From: Candidatus Sysuiplasma jiujiangense
GTDB taxonomy: Archaea > Thermoplasmatota > Thermoplasmata > Sysuiplasmatales > Sysuiplasmataceae
Direction: 5' to 3'
Assembly (NCBI GenBank): GCA_019721075.1
Contig: JAHEAD010000009.1
Coordinates: forward strand, 29,888 to 93,887
DNA length: 64,000 nt
Notes under the pieces: generated by a model
The model's database searches: none
What the model saw: the letters and a program-made list of their open reading frames with translations, nothing else
Told to the model about the DNA's origin: nothing
Program-made: the position numbers and the translations under genes
Shown here: positions 3,281 to 52,159 of the stretch, piece by piece
Layout of the letters: each line of letters opens with the position of its first letter
How positions within the stretch are numbered: the stretch's first letter is position 1

Positions 3281-5206
3281 ATGAGTCTAGAAAGAATGCT
3301 TGAAGAAGTTAACGAAGCGGTAAAGAAAATTTTCCCTGCAGATATTGAGATTGCAAACATAGATTTCGAAGCTTCTGTGGTGGTAATATACATCAGGAAT
3401 TTCGAAAAATTTTCACAGAACACGGAACTGGTAAGACAGCTTGCCCAGTCTCTGAAGAGAAGAGTGGATATAAGGCCGGATCCATCATTGCTGGCAGACA
3501 AGGATGAGGTCGAAAAAAAGATCAGGTCAATTATACCGGACGAAGCACAGGTAATGGACATATTCTTTGACGATGAAACCGGCGAGGTTGTTATCGAGGC
3601 GATAAGCCCCGGTTCGGTGATAGGAAAGCAGGGGGCAGTTCTCAACGAGATCAAAAGAGAGACCGGCTGGGCGCCCAAGGTTGTTCGTGCTCCACCAATC
3701 GCATCCAAGACAATAAACGACATCAGGACATACATGAGGACGATATCAAACGAGCGGAAGGACTTTCTCAGGAAGGTGGGTAGACGACTTTACAGGGCCA
3801 GGATGGAAGGGGAAGGCTGGATACGCATAACATCCCTGGGAGGTTTCAGGGAGGTTGGAAGAAGCTCCACACTGCTCAGCACCAGGGAGAGCAAAGTTCT
3901 CATAGACTGCGGATTGGGAACATCGGATCAGGACAGCGGCGGGCCAAATGTTCCGGCGCCCTATCTCAGTGCACCTGAACTGCAGCCCATCGAATCGATT
4001 GATGCCGTCGTTATTACGCATGCTCACCTTGACCACACAGGCCTGCTGCCGGCGCTTTTCAAGTATGGTTATGACGGCCCTGTTTACTGCACCCCTCCCA
4101 CGCGCGATATGATGTCGATGCTCCAGCTTGATATGATCAAGGTTGCGTTCGGAGAGGGCAAGAAGCCTCCTTATGAATCATCCCATATCAGAAAGGAGGT
4201 CGCAAACTGCATAACACTGAAATACGGTGAAACTACAGACATAGCACCGGATATCAGGCTAACCTTCCAGAACGCGGGCCATATTCTAGGTTCTGCTGTA
4301 TGCCACTTCCACATAGGCGAAGGGCTGTACAACATAGCATTCAGCGGCGACATAAAGTACGAAAAGACATGGCTGTTCAATCCGGCAAACAACAAATTCC
4401 CAAGACTGGAGGCACTTGTTCTGGAGGCAACGTATGGCGGCTACAAGGACATACAGGCATCACGGCAGGAAGCTTCGATAGGTCTCAAGGAGATCGTAGA
4501 GAGGGTTCTCGGCAGGCAGGGAAAGGTCATAATTCCCGTTTTCGCAGTAGGCAGATCGCAGGAAATGATGCTAGTACTGGAGGAACTTATGAGAACCGGT
4601 CAGGTGCCGACCATTCCAGTCTGGCTCGACGGGATGATCTGGGAAGCTACAGCCATTCACACAGCCTATCCGGAATACCTTAACAGCCAGCTAAGAACGC
4701 AGATATTCCAGAATGGAGAGAATCCATTTCTCTCACCCATATTCCGAAGGGTCGACAGCAGTGAGACAAGAAACAGGATACTCAACGACACGGAACCCTG
4801 CATCGTCCTCGCCACATCGGGAATGATGAACGGCGGGCCTGTAATGGAGTACATGAAACACTGGGCAGACGATCAGAGAAATACGCTCATATTCGTCGGT
4901 TATCAGGCCGAGGGAACGCTTGGCAGAAAGATCCAGCGCGGTGCAAAGGAACTGCAGATGAGCGAGCATGGCCAGCAGATAGCGGTGCCCATAAACCTGA
5001 ATATCGAGACTGTAGACGGTTTCAGCGGCCATTCGGACAGAAGACAGCTGCTTAACTTTGTTTCCAGCATGGAGCCGAAGCCCAGCAGAATATTCCTTGG
5101 ACATGGCGAAGAGCACAAGTGCCTTGAGCTCGCGAGCACCATACACAAGAAATTCGGCATTGAAACTAAGGCGCCGATGAATCTGGAGACCGTCAGGCTC
5201 AGGTGA
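3281..5206 (+). CDS. fttA: aCPSF1/FttA: KH-domain beta-CASP metallo-beta-lactamase ribonuclease (transcription termination / RNA processing)
   Basis: N-terminal KH-like region, HAHLDHTG (HxHxDH), and C-terminal GFSGHSDRRQLLNFV beta-CASP motif C; 641 aa. Confidence 0.9.
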   Translation: MSLERMLEEVNEAVKKIFPADIEIANIDFEASVVVIYIRNFEKFSQNTELVRQLAQSLKRRVDIRPDPSLLADKDEVEKKIRSIIPDEAQVMDIFFDDETGEVVIEAISPGSVIGKQGAVLNEIKRETGWAPKVVRAPPIASKTINDIRTYMRTISNERKDFLRKVGRRLYRARMEGEGWIRITSLGGFREVGRSSTLLSTRESKVLIDCGLGTSDQDSGGPNVPAPYLSAPELQPIESIDAVVITHAHLDHTGLLPALFKYGYDGPVYCTPPTRDMMSMLQLDMIKVAFGEGKKPPYESSHIRKEVANCITLKYGETTDIAPDIRLTFQNAGHILGSAVCHFHIGEGLYNIAFSGDIKYEKTWLFNPANNKFPRLEALVLEATYGGYKDIQASRQEASIGLKEIVERVLGRQGKVIIPVFAVGRSQEMMLVLEELMRTGQVPTIPVWLDGMIWEATAIHTAYPEYLNSQLRTQIFQNGENPFLSPIFRRVDSSETRNRILNDTEPCIVLATSGMMNGGPVMEYMKHWADDQRNTLIFVGYQAEGTLGRKIQRGAKELQMSEHGQQIAVPINLNIETVDGFSGHSDRRQLLNFVSSMEPKPSRIFLGHGEEHKCLELASTIHKKFGIETKAPMNLETVRLR

Positions 5207-6400: not shown

Positions 6401-7723
6401 TCATTTTGCAGCCTGCATGACCTGCATTTTACCAAGAAGGCGCGAAATTCTTTCCGAGTCTTCCGGCTCGTCGATAAGGTTTGAAACGTCCTCAACCGTG
6501 AATGACAGCCTGCCTATCATCGAAAGTGCAAACTGGTCCGAGGATTTGAATGCGCTTCTGAAAAATGGAATCACATCATCCCTTGCATGGGCGATTGAAC
6601 AGTGGCAATAACCGGCGATCTTTTCCTCCATCGACGCCCTTGACCTGATCAGTGAATTTCTGTAGCCTATCCGCATTAGCATGTAAGGGAACCTGGGCAA
6701 TGGAGAATGGCTGCTGCCCCGTGCCGCATTGCTTGCGCCTATTCCCATCAGTTCGGAAGAATAAGACCAGAATTTATAGTAGCTCAGTCTCCCTGCTCTT
6801 TCCAGGAATTCCGTAGCAAGCGCCAGCATAGCATATCCGCCGGCCAGTCTGTCGATGTTTTCCACATAATACGGGAGATTTTCATCAATCCACAGGGATA
6901 TGTGTTCCGGATCCTCGTCGAACCTGCCTAGAATTTCCCTTACCTTTCCTGGGCTGTCCGACTTAAACAGGGTTGCGAGACCATCCCGCAACTCCACTGT
7001 TTTGTCCCGCTTCTTCATAGACAAAACGTCTTCAAGAGTTACGACTTTCCTGATCGAAATCGCCTGCAGATCATTGATTGCGGCCCGCGCATCGCCGGAT
7101 GACTGTTCGATCAGTTTGAGCGCAGCATCCCTGCTGATGGATATGCCTTCGGCATCAGCTATCCTGTGAATGATGGATGCAAGTTCGTACTCGCCGATAT
7201 TTTCGAATTTGATCACCTTCGATGACTTCTTTATGAATTCGCTCCTTTTTGTCAGGCTGAAAAGATCGTTCACTATCAGAACGACCGGCTGCAGGGTGTT
7301 CCGTATAAGATCGGACACAGCCGCAATTCCTCCCCTGTCCTCCCTGCTGTGTATATTATCAGCCTCATCGAGAATTATCAGATGGCGTTTGCCCTTCTCA
7401 ATTGAAAAATATTCTCCATTCTGGGCGAAGGTATTCGTGCCTGAACCCGGGATCACAACTCTCCGTATTTCCTTTTCGCCTCTCTTGTCCGATGCATTCA
7501 TCTCTATGAAATCCCATCCGAATTCCTTCGCAAGCGCGATCGCACTTGAAGTCTTTCCGACACCAGGCGGGCCTGAAAGTATGGCAGCGCGGATTTCCGG
7601 CGGCTCCCTGCCTGACCATGTTTCAGCCCATTTTTGAAGCGCAGCCTTAGCCTGCTTGTTCCCTGCAATTTCAGCCAGGGTTGAAGGCCTGTATTTTTCG
7701 CTCCAGGCGATCTCGTATTTCAT
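6401..7723 (-). CDS. rfcL: Replication factor C large subunit
   Basis: WSEKYRP start, Walker A ILSGPPGVGKTSSA, Walker B LIILDEAD and SRED-like region. Confidence 0.9.
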   Translation of the reverse strand: MKYEIAWSEKYRPSTLAEIAGNKQAKAALQKWAETWSGREPPEIRAAILSGPPGVGKTSSAIALAKEFGWDFIEMNASDKRGEKEIRRVVIPGSGTNTFAQNGEYFSIEKGKRHLIILDEADNIHSREDRGGIAAVSDLIRNTLQPVVLIVNDLFSLTKRSEFIKKSSKVIKFENIGEYELASIIHRIADAEGISISRDAALKLIEQSSGDARAAINDLQAISIRKVVTLEDVLSMKKRDKTVELRDGLATLFKSDSPGKVREILGRFDEDPEHISLWIDENLPYYVENIDRLAGGYAMLALATEFLERAGRLSYYKFWSYSSELMGIGASNAARGSSHSPLPRFPYMLMRIGYRNSLIRSRASMEEKIAGYCHCSIAHARDDVIPFFRSAFKSSDQFALSMIGRLSFTVEDVSNLIDEPEDSERISRLLGKMQVMQAAK

Positions 7724-8453
7724 CAGAATGAAGCAATGATATCCGCGCCTTAAATGCCTTTTTTGTTCAAGTCTCATATCGTTATATGTCTAATAGTTAG
7801 TAAATTATGCCATACATATACAAACAATAATTAAACACTAATATGCTATATTCGGCTAAATTGCAAAGCGTGCGATCAAATGGAGAAGGATCGACCTATC
7901 CATCCATGCAGAACTGATTATGCTCAAGCCTGAGTAAATAGCGATAAGAGAAATTGTTATCCGCGTAGACAGAAAATTACAAAACTCAAATAACGGGTCT
8001 CATGAACACTCAATTTTGATCTGAAGAGAACTTGAAAGGGATCTTCATAAACATGTCAGTTGAAATTCAGCATTGATTATGAATATTATTATTGGATTAT
8101 GCTCGTCTCATCAAATTATATGTTAAACATATAATAGCTCTGACTTCCTGGCCCAATATCTGAATTTATTCCCTGTAATACACTATCAAGCTAAATAATA
8201 ATAGGTATACACTGTATTGGATAAATTAATATTTGTCGATAGTTATTTTCACTGTACATCCATTTCCGTAAAGTCCTGTCAAGGCATTATACGGGGGATA
8301 TTCACAGAGAGCGGATCCAAAACCTGTTGTTTCCGCAATATCCGGCCCGATTGCCTGATCCGGTTTTCAGTGGATCGATGCATAGTGTGTCGGTTAATGC
8401 GCAATATCAGGGACTGTGGCGCCTGGAGAGGAATAAGACAATCCACGATCCGT

Positions 8454-8493
8454 ACATTCACGTAAATGTCGGTGAACCGATATTTACGTGAAT
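8454..8493. repeat. 13-bp perfect inverted repeat CATTCACGTAAAT / ATTTACGTGAATG around a 14-bp near-palindromic spacer, inside the AT-rich region downstream of the truncated serine recombinase
   Basis: Seen directly; candidate recombinase crossover or binding site. Confidence 0.5.
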
Positions 8494-8776
8494 GCGCAAT
8501 AATGTTCTTCAATTTCTTTTGTGCTCCACAAGATACCGCTGGAAATGCACGGAGCGGCGCCGCACGGATTTTAACATTGTGTATCGCGAAAGCAAATTTA
8601 TTCATTCATGTAATGGCACAACTGCAGGGGCACAACCGCCGTTTCACACATTTCAACATCAAGATGAATGGATAAATGATATGAGCAATTAGCATAGATC
8701 GAATATCGTGTCATTCACAGTTTGTCACGTCGCATGCTCTCAATGACCGTGATTTATGCGCTGCGTCATGCAATCG

Positions 8777-9658
8777 TCAGGCCGAGGCACATACACCGAA
8801 CTCGCCATTTACAAGCTTTTGAATCTGCATAATACGGCAGCTGTCGCCGCGACTCCTAAGTTGCCTGAGTCTCTGGGCCGCATTCCACTTTTCCTGATCT
8901 ACTATAGGTGTGTGTTTTCCTTTCCAGTAGAACAGGCTCCACCTGTGATATCCGGCGTAAAGCGGATTTGTCAGCACGTTGAGGACAGTCTGCCTCGTCC
9001 ACTCTTTCAAATTTTTTGTCTTAATGTCTTTCATGTTCATGCCTGTCGCTATGTCCTGGAGGCTATGCCCTTTCAGATATTCATCGTAAATCCGCTTCAC
9101 CACCATAGCTTCGCGATCCTCCACCTTCAGCCCGCCTTCCTCATAGCGGTAACCATATGGATGATTGAAGCCAAGAATACCGTTTCCCTCTTTAGCCTTC
9201 TGAAGCATTCCCATTTTCACTCTCTCGGCTATCATACCACGCTCAAACTCAGCCACACTGCCTAGCATATTAAAAATAAGTTTGCCTGCAGGAGTCGTTG
9301 TATCAAAGGGTTCGGTCGCACTCTTGAAATACACTCCGCTCTCATCCATTTCATGGACCAGGTTAGACAGATCCCTCATATTCCTGGAGAGCCTGTCCAG
9401 CTTGTAAACAAGTATCAGATCAAAATTCTTCTTTCTGAGATCCTCTCTCAACTTCAAAAAGGCGGGTCTGTTCAAATTGCCCCCGGAGAATCCGGCATCT
9501 TCGTAAATTTCGGAGAGCTCCCACCCCTGACTGACTATGTACGCCTTGAGCCTGTCCCGCTGGGCAGCAATGCTGTAACCCTCCTCGGCCTGTTCAGTGG
9601 TTGAAACCCTGAGATATATCGCTACCCGCATGTGCATCCGACGATTGTCAGACATCAA
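8777..9658 (-). pseudogene. Large serine recombinase (resolvase/invertase catalytic domain + start of recombinase domain), truncated; the Zn-ribbon/coiled-coil C-terminal half is absent
   Basis: Catalytic serine in MRVAIYLRVSTTEQ, then AGFSG, YKLDRLSRN and the first ~130 aa of the recombinase domain (GFNHPYGYRY...NPLYAGYHRW), then a stop. Downstream is ~1 kb of AT-rich DNA without ORFs. Confidence 0.6.
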
Positions 9659-9707
9659 CCTTCATGAATATAATTCTTTCAAATCAGCGAGGAGCAGCAT
9701 CAACACG

Positions 9708-10193
9708 ATGTTATTGGGACTTTCTAAATACATGAATGACCCTTTTTCAGTCGTGAACGAAGAAATAAAGAAAAAAATCGAACATTTTGGCGGCCTGCTG
9801 GATGAACAGACGGCAAAACTGCTGATCGATTACGAGAATGGAAAGTTTGACGAGGAGAGAAAGGAAAAATTGCGCGCAAAAATTTACAAATCACTCAACT
9901 CAAGGATCGAAGCGCTTGTACTGGAGGTACAAATGCCTCGGGAATACAGGAAAAAGAATGAAGAGACGGGAAAAATACTTTCCATAAAGGTATTTGTAAA
10001 TCAGAGAGAGGCATCGCTTACATTCTGGGACTCCCAGATAGAAAAAATCGATATCGGAAAATTTTCAGAGGGAAAGAAGATTGTCATGGTGAACTGCCAT
10101 CTAAGCGAGGGAAAATTCGGGCTACAGATTAACACAGGTAAGGGCGGGGTAATTTCAACAGAAACAGGTGAGTTGATATTCAGCGCATATTAA
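9708..10193 (+). CDS. Hypothetical OB-fold nucleic-acid-binding (RPA-like) protein
   Basis: The C-terminal segment ILSIKVFVNQREASLTFWDSQIEKIDIGKFSEGKKIVMVNCHLSEGKFGLQINTGKGGVI resembles ssDNA-binding OB folds (..TG.i.vtlWd...). The start was chosen at an internal Met to avoid overlap with the recombinase. Confidence 0.4.
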   Translation: MLLGLSKYMNDPFSVVNEEIKKKIEHFGGLLDEQTAKLLIDYENGKFDEERKEKLRAKIYKSLNSRIEALVLEVQMPREYRKKNEETGKILSIKVFVNQREASLTFWDSQIEKIDIGKFSEGKKIVMVNCHLSEGKFGLQINTGKGGVISTETGELIFSAY

Positions 10194-10379
10194 TTTAGCA
10201 CGCATATGTATTAGATAAAATTAATTATGTTCGACAAGAACTTCGGTGGCAATACGAAATCTGATTACGGATTAACGAGCAGGGATTGTGCATGCCTGCG
10301 AAACAACCTGACAGCTCTGATTCTTCAATCCTCACCCTGGCGGGATTGTCCGCATACAGAGATTTTCACACATATATAG

Positions 10380-10520
10380 ATATATGTCTATAAATCAAAT
10401 ATTAAAATGCATATAATTCAATATAACATTAACTACAATTTAATATTAATATAAAAGTTTTAAATTAACATAAAATATTAAATATAAATTAAATATATAT
10501 TGCCATATAACAGTGATTTA
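10380..10520. repeat. Extreme AT-rich low-complexity block with reiterated AATATTAAA/TAAATATA units, upstream of the GH15 gene
   Basis: Base composition and short degenerate repeats seen directly. Confidence 0.5.
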
Positions 10521-10636
10521 ACATATCCCCACAGTCACATAGGGAACGGAAATTCAGTCTCCGGTAGTGACAGATGTGCTGAAGCAGGTAATTCTCATCT
10601 CTGCAAACAGCATTAATAAGAGCGTGTTTTTACCGA

Positions 10637-12460
10637 TTGACAATGAAAACCTTCGTCGAGAATGAATTTGACGAGTACAGGATTGAAAATCACGGAATAA
10701 TCGGAGACACCTATACAGCGGCACTGATCACTGTTAAGGGCACGATTGACTGGTGCTGCTTTCCCATAATGGATTCGGATGCCGTTTTTTCGTCGTTGCT
10801 TGACAGGGATAAGGGAGGGGAGTTCAGAATCGACGTTTCCGGCGCGATATCGTATTCACAGCGCTATCTCAGGAACACAAATGTACTCGAAACCGCAATT
10901 ATTTCTGAAACAGGGAAAATGAAAATTGTTGATTACATGCCTGTCGAGCTCCACCACGAGCATTATCACAGCTTCATATATTCAAGGCGTGAAATACACA
11001 GGATCATCAGTGTCGCTGAGGGAAGCGTGAAGTTTAAGATTGTGTTCAGACCGGGATTTGGCTTCGGACTCCGCAAGGCTGCATTCAAAAGAGTTGGCGG
11101 TGGCATTGTTGCCTCACACGGGACTGAAACGTTTTCAATTTCCGGTATCGAAAAGTTGAAGGCTGAGAGGCTCTGCGGCTCAGCGGAAATTTCCATGAAA
11201 AAGGGCATGGAGAAAGCGCTAGTAATGAGATGGAACGAGTCTGACCCTGTACCGTTCAACCCTTCCGTCGCAAAAGATTACCTCAAAAATACCATATCAT
11301 TCTGGCGCAATTGGGTTTCCGGGTCCTCATACAGCGGTAAATGGAAAGACGAGGTTATGAGATCTGCACTCGTGCTGAAGCTGCTCACTTATTCTCCCAC
11401 CGGTGCCATCTGCGCTGCCGCGACGACAAGTCTGCCTGAATCAATCGGAGGTGAGCGTAACTGGGATTACAGGTATTCCTGGATTCGCGATTCATCCTAC
11501 GCCCTGAGCGCGTTCAACCTGCTCGGCCACAGGGAGGAAGAGGAACGCTACTTCATGTGGCTGCTTCATCTTCTCAGGGGGAGAGCGACGAGTCCCGAGA
11601 GATTGAGGGTAATGTATACTGTCGAGGGCGACAATGTGCAGGATGAGATTAGTCTGAATGCGCTCGCCGGTTATGAAAACTCGCGTCCGGTAAGGGTGGG
11701 AAACGGTGCGACAGACCAGCTGCAGATTGATATCTTTGGGCCTATCATCGACGCAATATATTACACATTTTCGACGCCGGAAGTCCTGCCGGATCTTCTG
11801 TGGCGCATCGTGAAATCTGTCGCCGGCTATGTGCTTCTCAACTGGAACAGACCGGATATGGGAATATGGGAAATGAGAAACGGAAAAAAACGCCATACGC
11901 ACAGTGCAGTTATGTGCTGGATCGCACTTGACAGGGCCGCGAAAATTGCAGAAACTGCCGGGAATACTCTTACAGCAGGGAAATGGCGCAGGGCAGCGGA
12001 TGCCATCAGGCGGACAGTGCTACGTGACAGTTATGTAAGCGAGGGAGGCTATGTTTCAGGCATACTGAATCAGGCGTGGCTCGATGCGAGCGTTCTGGTA
12101 ATGGCTGATGCAGGCATAATAGATGCAAAGGATCCTGTATTCTCGTCGACACTGGATATGGTATCGGCACATCTTATGAGGGACGGACTCGTCTACAGAT
12201 ATCTCGGAAAGGACGGCCTGAAAGGCAATGAAGGCGCATTTTTACTGTGCACCTTCTGGTACATCGAGGCGCTGTGCCTGGCAGGAAAGCGGAGGGAAGC
12301 TGAAAATCTTTTCAAACGCATGCTGCGCCGAAGCAACCACCTTGGGCTGCTTTCCGAAGAGATTGAACCTTCGGATGGAAGATTCCTCGGCAACTTCCCG
12401 CAGGCTTTCAGCCATCTCGGACTCATAAAATGCGCTTGCCGGCTTGCCGGCAGGGAATAA
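10637..12460 (+). CDS. Glycoside hydrolase family 15 (glucoamylase/glucodextranase-like)
   Basis: WDYRYSWIRDSSYALSAFNLLGH and the (alpha/alpha)6 barrel region are typical of archaeal GH15; 607 aa. Confidence 0.8.
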   Translation: MTMKTFVENEFDEYRIENHGIIGDTYTAALITVKGTIDWCCFPIMDSDAVFSSLLDRDKGGEFRIDVSGAISYSQRYLRNTNVLETAIISETGKMKIVDYMPVELHHEHYHSFIYSRREIHRIISVAEGSVKFKIVFRPGFGFGLRKAAFKRVGGGIVASHGTETFSISGIEKLKAERLCGSAEISMKKGMEKALVMRWNESDPVPFNPSVAKDYLKNTISFWRNWVSGSSYSGKWKDEVMRSALVLKLLTYSPTGAICAAATTSLPESIGGERNWDYRYSWIRDSSYALSAFNLLGHREEEERYFMWLLHLLRGRATSPERLRVMYTVEGDNVQDEISLNALAGYENSRPVRVGNGATDQLQIDIFGPIIDAIYYTFSTPEVLPDLLWRIVKSVAGYVLLNWNRPDMGIWEMRNGKKRHTHSAVMCWIALDRAAKIAETAGNTLTAGKWRRAADAIRRTVLRDSYVSEGGYVSGILNQAWLDASVLVMADAGIIDAKDPVFSSTLDMVSAHLMRDGLVYRYLGKDGLKGNEGAFLLCTFWYIEALCLAGKRREAENLFKRMLRRSNHLGLLSEEIEPSDGRFLGNFPQAFSHLGLIKCACRLAGRE

Positions 12461-17585: not shown

Positions 17586-17686
17586 TGGCGCCGAGGGGGA
17601 GATTTGAACTCCCGAGGTGCAGTGCACCAGTGGCTTTCACGACTGGGTCTCGAGGCCACCGCTTTACCGGGCTGAGCTACCTCGGC
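17586..17686 (-). tRNA. tRNA-Ser(CGA) with a predicted 13-nt intron at the canonical 37/38 position, a long variable arm, and encoded CCA
   Basis: Hand fold: acceptor GCCGAGG/CCTCGGC, discriminator G, T-arm GGGAG-TTCAAAT-CTCCC, anticodon stem GTGGC/GCCAC, anticodon loop CTCGAGA, variable-arm hairpin GGTGC-ACT-GCACC, 3' CCA. Confidence 0.7.
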
Positions 17687-51460: not shown

Positions 51461-52159
51461 TCAGCTGTTCTCGGCGGGCTTTTTCATTGCGGCCGTATTC
51501 AACCGTTCAAGTCTTCTCTTCAGTATGAAATAGCGCAGAAAACGCTGATACACGATTGTGAACGGAAGACCGAGAAGTCCGTAAAGGAACACCCACGCCG
51601 GGAAAAAGATGATCGACTGGCCGAAATACACCCTGGCTGCCCACGGAACAGCGAAAACAGGATATGGAAGCGCAAGGAGAAATACGCTGAGCCAGGCGAA
51701 CAGGGGGAAAATGACTATTATCGTTATTGGCATTACCTTGAACTGCCTGTTCATCTGCTGCGTGTTTTCCATCATGTAGGAACCCTGAATCTTCTGAATC
51801 TTCTTCAGCTTCACCTGATCCCTTTCCTTCATCGCCTGCCTGTGGTGGATGCGCAGTGCTGCAAGATGTTTCTGGATCCTTGCCTGCTGGATGAAATCAG
51901 TGTAGATGACACGGAGCGATGTTCCAAGCAGGACGACAACCAGTTCGGCAAACATGATCGTGATTGTAGGATAAAGGCCGCCGAAACCGATGAGCGGATC
52001 GAGCACGTCGCCCGTGACCCTTACGGCAACCGCCCGTACGGAGGGGTTGAGGAAGGCAAACAGCATCACAAGCATGAATATCATGACAATGAACATCTGT
52101 CCCGTTCCCTGCGGCATCTGCTGCGGCGGCTGCCTGCTCTGCGCTGATGCCATGCTCAT
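51461..52159 (-). CDS. DUF106 family membrane protein (archaeal YidC/Oxa1/EMC3-like insertase homolog)
   Basis: Three-TM architecture with a coiled-coil/basic cytoplasmic loop and the typical secY-adjacent position. Confidence 0.65.
   Translation of the reverse strand: MSMASAQSRQPPQQMPQGTGQMFIVMIFMLVMLFAFLNPSVRAVAVRVTGDVLDPLIGFGGLYPTITIMFAELVVVLLGTSLRVIYTDFIQQARIQKHLAALRIHHRQAMKERDQVKLKKIQKIQGSYMMENTQQMNRQFKVMPITIIVIFPLFAWLSVFLLALPYPVFAVPWAARVYFGQSIIFFPAWVFLYGLLGLPFTIVYQRFLRYFILKRRLERLNTAAMKKPAENS

Follow-up and report, generated by a model that had tools for sequence, protein, structure and literature searches.

The closest described relatives of the enzyme considered here are the large serine recombinases (LSRs), exemplified by TP901-1 Int, A118/LI Int, Bxb1, SPbeta SprA and phiC31, in which a catalytic domain, a long alphaE helix and a recombinase domain (RD) are accompanied by a zinc ribbon and a coiled coil that account for reading of the outer att motif, attP x attB selectivity and direction. 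These proteins are encoded on mobile elements and act on an attP/attB pair. The present analysis concerns a stretch of 64,000 nucleotides from the archaeon Candidatus Sysuiplasma jiujiangense (GenBank assembly GCA_019721075.1, contig JAHEAD010000009.1, positions 29,888 to 93,887 of the forward strand; hereafter the window), which carries a gene for a short serine recombinase and, downstream of it, a dyad-symmetric site. The enzyme has the catalytic domain, alphaE helix and RD of LSRs, and the site shares with theirs a dyad organisation, a 2-bp asymmetric dinucleotide at the putative crossover point and conserved bases in the RD footprint (positions 1-13), but the protein has neither zinc ribbon nor coiled coil and belongs to a vertically inherited archaeal host gene with one symmetric site. 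Gene and site very probably constitute a host-kept recombinase and cognate-site module of Candidatus (Ca.) Sysuiplasmatales (Thermoplasmata), and the recombinase probably still catalyses recombination at the site; resolution of multimers is put forward, tentatively, as its biological role.

Small serine resolvases with an adjacent res site (Tn3/gamma-delta, Sin, beta, RK2 ParA) resemble the module in belonging to a class of about 200-300 amino acids (aa), in having the gene beside its own site, and in resolving multimers using two directly repeated copies of one site as substrates, as is proposed for the window enzyme. However, they carry an HTH_7-type domain in a total of about 180-210 aa, whereas the window enzyme has an LSR-type RD and 284-286 aa, and they rely on accessory sites II and III with the site in the promoter, whereas the window module has no detectable accessory sites and is chromosomal and archaeal, with its site downstream of the gene. 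The closest analogues in logic are the single-recombinase Xer systems (XerS/difSL, XerH/difH) and archaeal XerA/dif, in which a chromosomal gene lies beside one dyad site (PMC5357621). The analogy is functional only, because Xer proteins are tyrosine recombinases with central regions of 6-11 bp that proceed through Holliday junctions; unlike the window module, they have an established connection with the terminus and, in bacteria, with FtsK. Host-serving integrase-type serine recombinases also exist, namely SpoIVCA, XisF and CcrA/B/C, which include the best NCBIfam partial matches to the window protein, but these are proteins of 440-560 aa with zinc ribbon and coiled coil that act on two different sites flanking an element. 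Finally, IS607/ISC1904-type serine transposases share the serine catalytic domain and occur in archaeal hosts (PMC8371274). However, the IS607 TnpA protein has an N-terminal DNA-binding domain and no RD and is multicopy and mobile, whereas the window gene is single-copy, syntenic and immobile. A review of the field notes archaeal serine recombinases only in transposons, as "never fully investigated" (PMC8371274), and literature searches found no description of the recombinase-site module. The type is a known one, a serine site-specific recombinase with its site; what is unusual is the minimal architecture, the vertical inheritance in archaea and the single symmetric site.

A short serine recombinase with a complete recombinase domain

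The two elements of the module lie as follows (positions count from the first nucleotide of the window).

8777-9637, minus strand: short serine recombinase, from Pfam matches and orthologues; the whole open reading frame (ORF) is 8777-9658
8452-8497, no strand: dyad-symmetric 46-bp site, a putative recombination or binding site, from its palindrome and conservation

Read from the ATG at 9637 the recombinase has 286 aa, and its orthologues point to an ATG 6 nt downstream, which would give 284 aa with Ser10 as the nucleophile. Pfam recognises Resolvase (PF00239, 6.6e-46) and Recombinase (PF07508, 5.1e-23), and the order of parts is catalytic domain, long alphaE helix, RD and a conserved tail of 25 aa. 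The initial annotation of this DNA had described a recombinase that retains its catalytic domain without a zinc ribbon, which is borne out, and had taken it to be truncated within the recombinase domain, which is not: PF07508 is matched at positions 2-100 of 102, so the domain is complete and the gene is not cut inside it, and the orthologues end alike. The zinc ribbon (PF13408) is absent from the window protein and from every orthologue, there is no coiled coil in the window protein, and Pfam finds no HTH_7 domain in the recombinase. In alignments all of the short proteins stop at the start of the zinc-ribbon domain of the full-length enzymes. Remnants of a lost C-terminus, for which a check of the downstream frames had been suggested, were not found there: the C-terminal parts of 78 full-length LSRs, compared by tblastn with 7700-8900 for traces of zinc-ribbon domain or coiled coil, gave a best E of 0.17, which is noise, and all three minus-strand frames downstream of the gene are riddled with stops.

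The catalytic residues R10, S12, D81, R82 and R85 (numbered on the 286-aa form) are invariant down to homologues of 39-42% identity. An AlphaFold (AF2) model, with a predicted local distance difference test (pLDDT) score of 83, shows catalytic domain, long alphaE helix and RD, and the best Foldseek matches in the PDB are the SPbeta, Bxb1, TP901-1, phiC31 (N-terminal domain (NTD) and RD) and A118 (RD) integrases. The NTD of TP901-1 matches in fold with a root-mean-square deviation of 2.0, and the catalytic domain is 50% identical to it over 133 aligned positions. The NCBIfam matches to XisF and Ccr recombinases are partial, confined to the N-terminal halves and scoring 176 against a cut-off of 900 bits. 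The C-terminal tail, LQ[IV]xxLxxGEFG[IV] (window 8777-8850, residues ~262-286), is kept in Sysuiplasmatales orthologues and missing in P0019/P0020 and the distant clades; it is of low confidence in the model and does not correspond to a canonical PIP box. Its function may be to read an outer motif of the site or to bind a partner.

A search of 5.8 billion proteins yielded about 20 orthologues in Ca. Sysuiplasmatales/Thermoplasmata, at 56-99% identity and each of 282-295 aa, with Resolvase and Recombinase domains and no zinc ribbon, whereas full-length integrases of 450-550 aa turn up only at 38-48% identity or less. In a library clustered at 50% identity the orthologues form one cluster (447 bits) and the next match scores 227 bits; the next matches beyond the cluster are 42-48% identical and mostly LSRs of 450-550 aa. 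Plasmid and phage collections contain full-length integrases at 35-45% identity only, and no close relative. Compared with the nearest strain (locus L001) the gene shows 31 nt and 4 aa differences, with a ratio of nonsynonymous to synonymous substitution (dN/dS) of 0.036; judged from such comparison, the recombinase is under strong purifying selection. Other archaeal short recombinases occur in tandem: P0042 (L034-L036) is one of two Resolvase plus RD proteins of 258 aa and 279 aa, and P0058 (L032-L033) pairs 309 aa with a 234-aa protein that has a Pfam Recombinase-domain match alone, the L032 pair being followed by a CGGT-AG-ACCG dyad. These genes represent a broader, uncharacterised family of serine recombinases without a zinc ribbon.

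A single site conserved beside the gene

The palindrome consists of perfect inverted repeat arms of 13 nt at 8455-8467 and 8482-8494; the repeat reported in the initial annotation is therefore real, although its coordinates (8454-8493) were one base off. The arms extend to 19 nt with one mismatch (95% complementary) around a 2-bp centre. Across lineages a core of 26 bp (8462-8487) is invariant, reading GTAAATAT-CGGT-TC-ACCG-ACATTTAC on the minus strand, and the central dinucleotide at 8474-8475 is asymmetric, GA on the plus and TC on the minus strand. No other palindrome in the window is of such quality, and 60 Markov simulations produced none. With a position weight matrix (PWM) that leaves out the lineage of the window, 8452-8497 scores 48 bits and the runner-up in 64 kb -0.3. 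No second copy was found in the window with 3 mismatches allowed, nor by a PWM scan, which extends 8 kb on one side of the site and 55 kb on the other; loose matches to CGG[TA]NNACCG at 51563 and 55784 lack the flanking motifs.

When the spacers of 14 loci were compared all-against-all by blastn, the palindrome was the sole shared block. The core CGGTNNACCG occurs exactly once per locus in 19 loci, always 3' of the recombinase stop, and a regular-expression search found no second core within 10 kb in any locus, so that the search for a second inverted-repeat copy (attL/attR), as the initial annotation had suggested, came back empty for the window and for that range in its relatives. The distance from stop to core is 82-124 bp in five sister lineages and about 100-125 bp in three more, compared with 298 bp in the window, where the stretch 8498-8776 is about 190 bp longer than in most relatives, and 528 bp in L019, which harbours the most distant orthologue. 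The consensus of ten independent lineages is GTMAA-NNT-CGGT-TC-ACCG-ANN-TTKAC, in which half-site positions 2-6, 9, 10, 12 and 13 vary little or not at all. Further out, at positions 17-23, lies a weaker motif (CATT.. / AATGTAC), and additional conservation is seen at -26..-31, although on just one flank. Within +/-23 the information content averages 1.05 bit per position, against 0.10 beyond +/-30, and in two near-identical strains the site block is 98% identical against 76-91% for the surrounding spacer.

The 26-bp pattern has one match per genome in five Thermoplasmata genomes, each beside the recombinase, in a search of 185,579 species; two bacterial matches with no recombinase nearby are taken as chance. 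Among metagenome contigs of the Joint Genome Institute (JGI) only the L016 contig, the home locus, matched, and 2.9 million viral contigs gave no match to the site. The contigs that carry both recombinase and site bear the names Ca. Sysuiplasma, Sysuiplasmataceae or Thermoplasmata. Three lineages of distant homologues, of about 40% identity and with different genomic surroundings, each have a variant of the site immediately 3' of the gene: AGTCAACGTCGGACTACCGAAGTTAACT in L027 (written out, AGTCAACG-TCGGA-CT-ACCGA-AGTTAACT), GTGGCTTTCGGTCTACCGATAGCCAC in L029 (GTGGCTT-TCGGT-CT-ACCGA-TAGCCAC) and GAACAACGGTAGACCGTCGTTC in L032 (GAACA-ACGGT-AG-ACCGT-CGTTC). The L032 module is found on CP070751.1. 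Collectively, this comparative evidence strongly supports the earlier suggestion that the palindrome is built like a serine-recombinase crossover site and would be bound by the protein.

The 2-bp non-palindromic centre is what gives a serine-recombinase site its polarity. Here the central dinucleotide is non-palindromic in every lineage, being TC, or CT in three, and never TA, AT, GC or CG. TC runs along the direction of the gene in eight of ten lineages and is flipped in L016-18 (L016 10970) and L025 (1211-1236). Because the centre is flipped in these two, its orientation relative to the neighbouring genes seems free, as would be expected where two copies of the site need only be oriented correctly with respect to each other. 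Such a flip is impossible by site-specific recombination and would therefore reflect either a mutated centre or a short inversion confined to the near-palindrome.

Two observations concern variation around the site. Identity between L001 and the window is about 100% from 12437 down to ~9540, then 93-95% across the 3' half of the recombinase, and 74-84% from the recombinase stop to the site; the sharp boundary inside the gene probably marks where a tract of homologous recombination between strains ends. Divergence between strains does not start at the crossover point, as it would had site-specific exchange left its footprint: it tracks noncoding DNA and, against L001, starts inside the gene. 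In addition, the independent metagenomic contigs of L001, L003, L005, L009 and L012 run out within the non-conserved spacer, 130-430 bp past the site, which could reflect strain heterogeneity, structural variation or simply AT-rich DNA of low coverage.

Gene neighbourhood and composition

The remaining features of the locus, from the rfcL flank to the GH15 flank, are listed below.

6401-7777, minus strand: rfcL, replication factor C large subunit (Pfam AAA, Rad17 and RFC1 lid)
7778-8451, no strand: non-conserved spacer from the site to rfcL, from composition; no similarity to relatives and no Rfam match
8498-8776, no strand: non-conserved spacer from the recombinase stop to the site, from comparison with relatives
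9638-9707, no strand: divergent intergenic region of 70 bp with presumed promoters, from gene coordinates
9708-10193, plus strand: RPA-like gene, single OB-fold, 161 aa (NCBIfam replication factor A N-terminal region, E 1.7e-12)
10361-10520, no strand: extreme AT block, 8-11% GC, 3' of the RPA-like gene and 5' of GH15
10637-12460, plus strand: GH15, on the opposite flank from rfcL

In every Sysuiplasmatales locus with enough sequence the gene order is thermosome, GH15, a few variable genes, the RPA-like gene, the recombinase, the spacer, rfcL, and then TYW1, a CPSF-like nuclease and a proteasome gene. The recombinase is present in every related locus of this synteny comparison, which the initial annotation had suggested. 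Nor were att duplication, cargo genes or patchy presence seen across the related loci, and housekeeping genes stand on both flanks. The OB-fold gene reported next to the recombinase is confirmed by its match to the N-terminal region of replication factor A; its orthologues, of 144-175 aa, occupy the same place, and the divergent pairing of recombinase and RPA-like gene is kept in the Sysuiplasmatales loci and in L019. The latter, whose recombinase is 56% identical, retains the RPA-like neighbour in a 280-aa version with the OB domain PF01336, with rfcL about 3 kb off. P0034 (L027), at 39% identity, is still upstream of rfcL-TYW1, and in L029 and L032 the module is present without rfcL or RPA.

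Rearrangements are seen in some relatives. In L010-L012 (the P0002 lineage) the recombinase is separated from the RPA-like gene by an insertion that comprises an amino-acid permease and an aminotransferase, and past the site there are small ORFs and a 197-aa rfcL-like fragment on the opposite strand, the breakpoints not being at the site. The block of TYW1, CPSF-like nuclease and proteasome subunit beside rfcL is inverted between L006/L016 and L013/L014.

The whole spacer (7778-8776) is 999 bp long, against a range of 416 to about 1000 bp among relatives. The initial annotation called it ORF-free and AT-rich: its ORFs, of just 54-108 aa, have neither Pfam matches nor conservation, but strong AT-richness is limited to 7780-8250 (30-33% GC), the remainder to 8776 being 44-46% GC. 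The rfcL promoter is probably located in 7778-8451. The second, extreme AT block was correctly noted: 10361-10520 is the GC minimum of the whole window, and the three lowest-GC stretches of the window all fall in the recombinase locus. Blocks of 100 bp with 9-12% GC lie at the corresponding place in L001 (~9137-9236), L002 (~5031-5130) and L006 (~9091-9190), and the block is not found in L010, L013 or L019; the host genomes have about 50% GC. There is no sequence conservation of the block among the lineages compared, and it is possibly an unwinding element, or a strong terminator or promoter region. Rfam at gathering thresholds finds only two tRNAs in the whole window, both away from the locus, and no tRNA was found near the recombinase locus; permissive thresholds gave only chance-level matches in 7600-10700. 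One of the Rfam predictions, a 98-nt tRNA at 17589-17686 (minus strand), is missing from the ARAGORN output and probably represents an archaeal tRNA with an intron.

A proposed mechanism and role

In the structure of the A118 integrase bound to attP, the RD contacts 13 bp next to the crossover, with major-groove contacts of alphaH at positions 9-11, and the zinc-ribbon motif falls at 16-24 in attP and 11-19 in attB (PMC3783163). The invariant bases of the present site, 2-6 and 9-13, coincide with the 13-bp RD footprint, which fits a protein with an RD and no zinc ribbon. A dimer of the recombinase would thus occupy two 13-bp half-sites, with TCGGT (positions 2-6) contacted by the alphaE/linker region and TTKAC (9-13) by the helix-turn-helix of the RD. 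Two such dimers would then come together in a synapse, with double-strand cleavage at the asymmetric TC centre and strand exchange through rotation of subunits. The natural partners would be two copies of one site, on dimers or multimers of the chromosome or on sister copies. The persistence of an asymmetric centre together with invariant catalytic residues suggests that selection acts on strand exchange and not on binding alone, and it is in this light that continued catalysis at the site appears likely.

As to the role, multimer resolution is favoured because one site per genome leaves only copies of that same site as substrates. XerS/difSL, XerH/difH and large plasmids also keep a recombinase gene and its site adjacent as a module (PMC5357621), and a multimer-resolving role would accord with the likeness to XerS/difSL-type modules and to plasmid resolvase/res systems. 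Multimer resolution is the role that we would propose, although with somewhat less than even confidence, and the same reserve attaches to the full statement that the module comprises a domesticated short serine recombinase with a single cognate site and serves to resolve multimers.

Several points weigh against this proposal. Known serine resolvases need accessory sites, and LSRs their coiled coil, for synapsis and directionality, and no accessory repeats or half-site-like motifs were found near the site. The outer motif at 17-23 falls where a zinc ribbon would bind, yet the protein has none; the tail is a candidate reader of this motif, because L019 lacks both, although that is a single lineage. 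The count of one site per genome is of the exact 26-bp pattern in incomplete metagenome-assembled genomes and would miss a diverged second site. The cumulative GC skew of the window follows gene orientation and is uninformative as to origin or terminus, the sequence covered being the 64 kb and pieces of 20 kb. Thermoplasma acidophilum has a working XerA/dif (PMC8371274); if Sysuiplasmatales also had XerA, a second resolution system would be less needed. No tyrosine recombinase is found among 20 other ORFs scanned, which represent part of the window.

Alternative explanations

A first alternative is that the enzyme is a host integrase and its site an attB-like chromosomal landing site, through which circular DNAs with a matching site (plasmids, viruses or gene cassettes, for instance) are captured and released. 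The protein does come from the integrase (TP901-1-like) lineage, the DNA past the site is hypervariable from one lineage or strain to the next, there are five metagenomic contigs that stop 130-430 bp beyond it, and DNA on the rfcL side is rearranged in the L010-L012 lineage. However, no locus has an insertion split by two half-sites, the flank right after the crossover is colinear between lineages while strain divergence starts elsewhere, and the searches of viral contigs and JGI metagenomes returned nothing beyond the home locus. Moreover, the site looks unrecombined, since it is equally symmetric in all lineages. Such a function is therefore considered unlikely.

Similarly unlikely, and slightly the more so, is that the protein has been domesticated as a DNA-binding factor and has lost recombination, its dimer on the palindrome having a regulatory, architectural or replication-linked function, for example towards rfcL or the RPA-like gene. 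The position of the module between two replication genes, with linkage to rfcL down to 39% identity, would suit such a factor, as would the location of the three most AT-rich stretches of the window in this locus, and the tail LQ[IV]xxLxxGEFG[IV] could be a partner-binding peptide. But the catalytic residues are all invariant over deep divergence and the asymmetric centre, which is relevant to strand exchange alone, is kept. The site is not at a promoter, being located 3' of the recombinase gene with 0.3-0.7 kb between it and rfcL, and the module exists without rfcL or RPA in L029 and L032.

The enzyme might instead act between its site and a distant, diverged partner on the same chromosome, as a large inversion switch or for excision of a big segment in the manner of SpoIVCA and XisF. 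The partial NCBIfam matches to XisF and Ccr are in keeping with this, as are the flipped TYW1-CPSF-proteasome block in L013 relative to L006 and the inverted rfcL fragment in L011, but none of the observed inversions has the site at its breakpoint. The absence of a second site within 8 kb and 55 kb of the window site, and within 10 kb in any locus, together with the single exact pattern per genome, makes such a partner improbable.

It is very improbable that the palindrome functions independently of the recombinase, either as a hairpin (a terminator, stability element or cruciform) or as part of a replication origin with AT-rich unwinding. The hairpin that the palindrome could form as RNA is very stable in the window (-28.4 kcal/mol, z -6.2), but it is weak in relatives (z -2.1, -2.3 and -0.1) that have kept the motifs, and no Rfam family corresponds to the palindrome. 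The dyad in register pairs 70.8% of cells against 32-40% when slid and 68.5% in column shuffles; because pairing is no better than in the shuffles, the symmetry is that of a single motif present twice rather than a product of compensatory change, and variable positions 7, 8, 11 and 14-16 are complementary in just two to six of the ten lineages. Archaeal oriC has an AT-rich unwinding element and flanking origin recognition box (ORB) repeats and usually lies beside orc1/cdc6. Extreme AT blocks and replication genes are indeed close by, but ORB-like repeats were not found, there is no orc1/cdc6 among the 20 other ORFs scanned, which are not all of those in the window, and the site accompanies the recombinase into unrelated contexts.

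The original suggestion of a decayed integrated plasmid or provirus, in which an LSR truncated by mutation is left beside a leftover att site, is hardly credible despite the low-GC DNA around the gene and the phage and plasmid integrases that are its nearest full-length relatives, and is refuted because relatives at 56-99% identity keep the same arrangement with an intact gene of 282-295 aa, equal in length and position throughout, with a dN/dS of 0.036, housekeeping flanks, no zinc-ribbon or coiled-coil remnants, no cargo genes and a site that is itself under selection. An intact short gene in the same arrangement in relatives is the very outcome that the initial annotation had named as refuting its reading.

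Implications

A vertically inherited and strongly conserved recombinase that is paired with a DNA site constitutes a ready, testable enzyme-substrate pair, and genome annotation should refrain from marking such short genes as pseudogenes or as relics of a prophage. If the enzyme recombines, it would show that an integrase-type protein can work without the zinc-ribbon and coiled-coil module that is thought to control synapsis and direction, and a small recombinase that acts on a short symmetric site would become available; if this is true, a moderately thermophilic acidophile would be the source of a compact, possibly bidirectional Cre-like tool.

The broadest reading, which is possible but doubtful, is that an archaeal order resolves chromosome multimers by a minimal serine recombinase of integrase lineage, instead of or alongside Xer/dif, using two identical sites of 26-46 bp and no zinc ribbon, coiled coil or accessory sites. 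We know of no described chromosomal dimer-resolution system that uses a serine recombinase, and that of the window would, if true, be the first. Were the module to resolve chromosome multimers, it would extend to serine recombinases a job known for tyrosine recombinases only.

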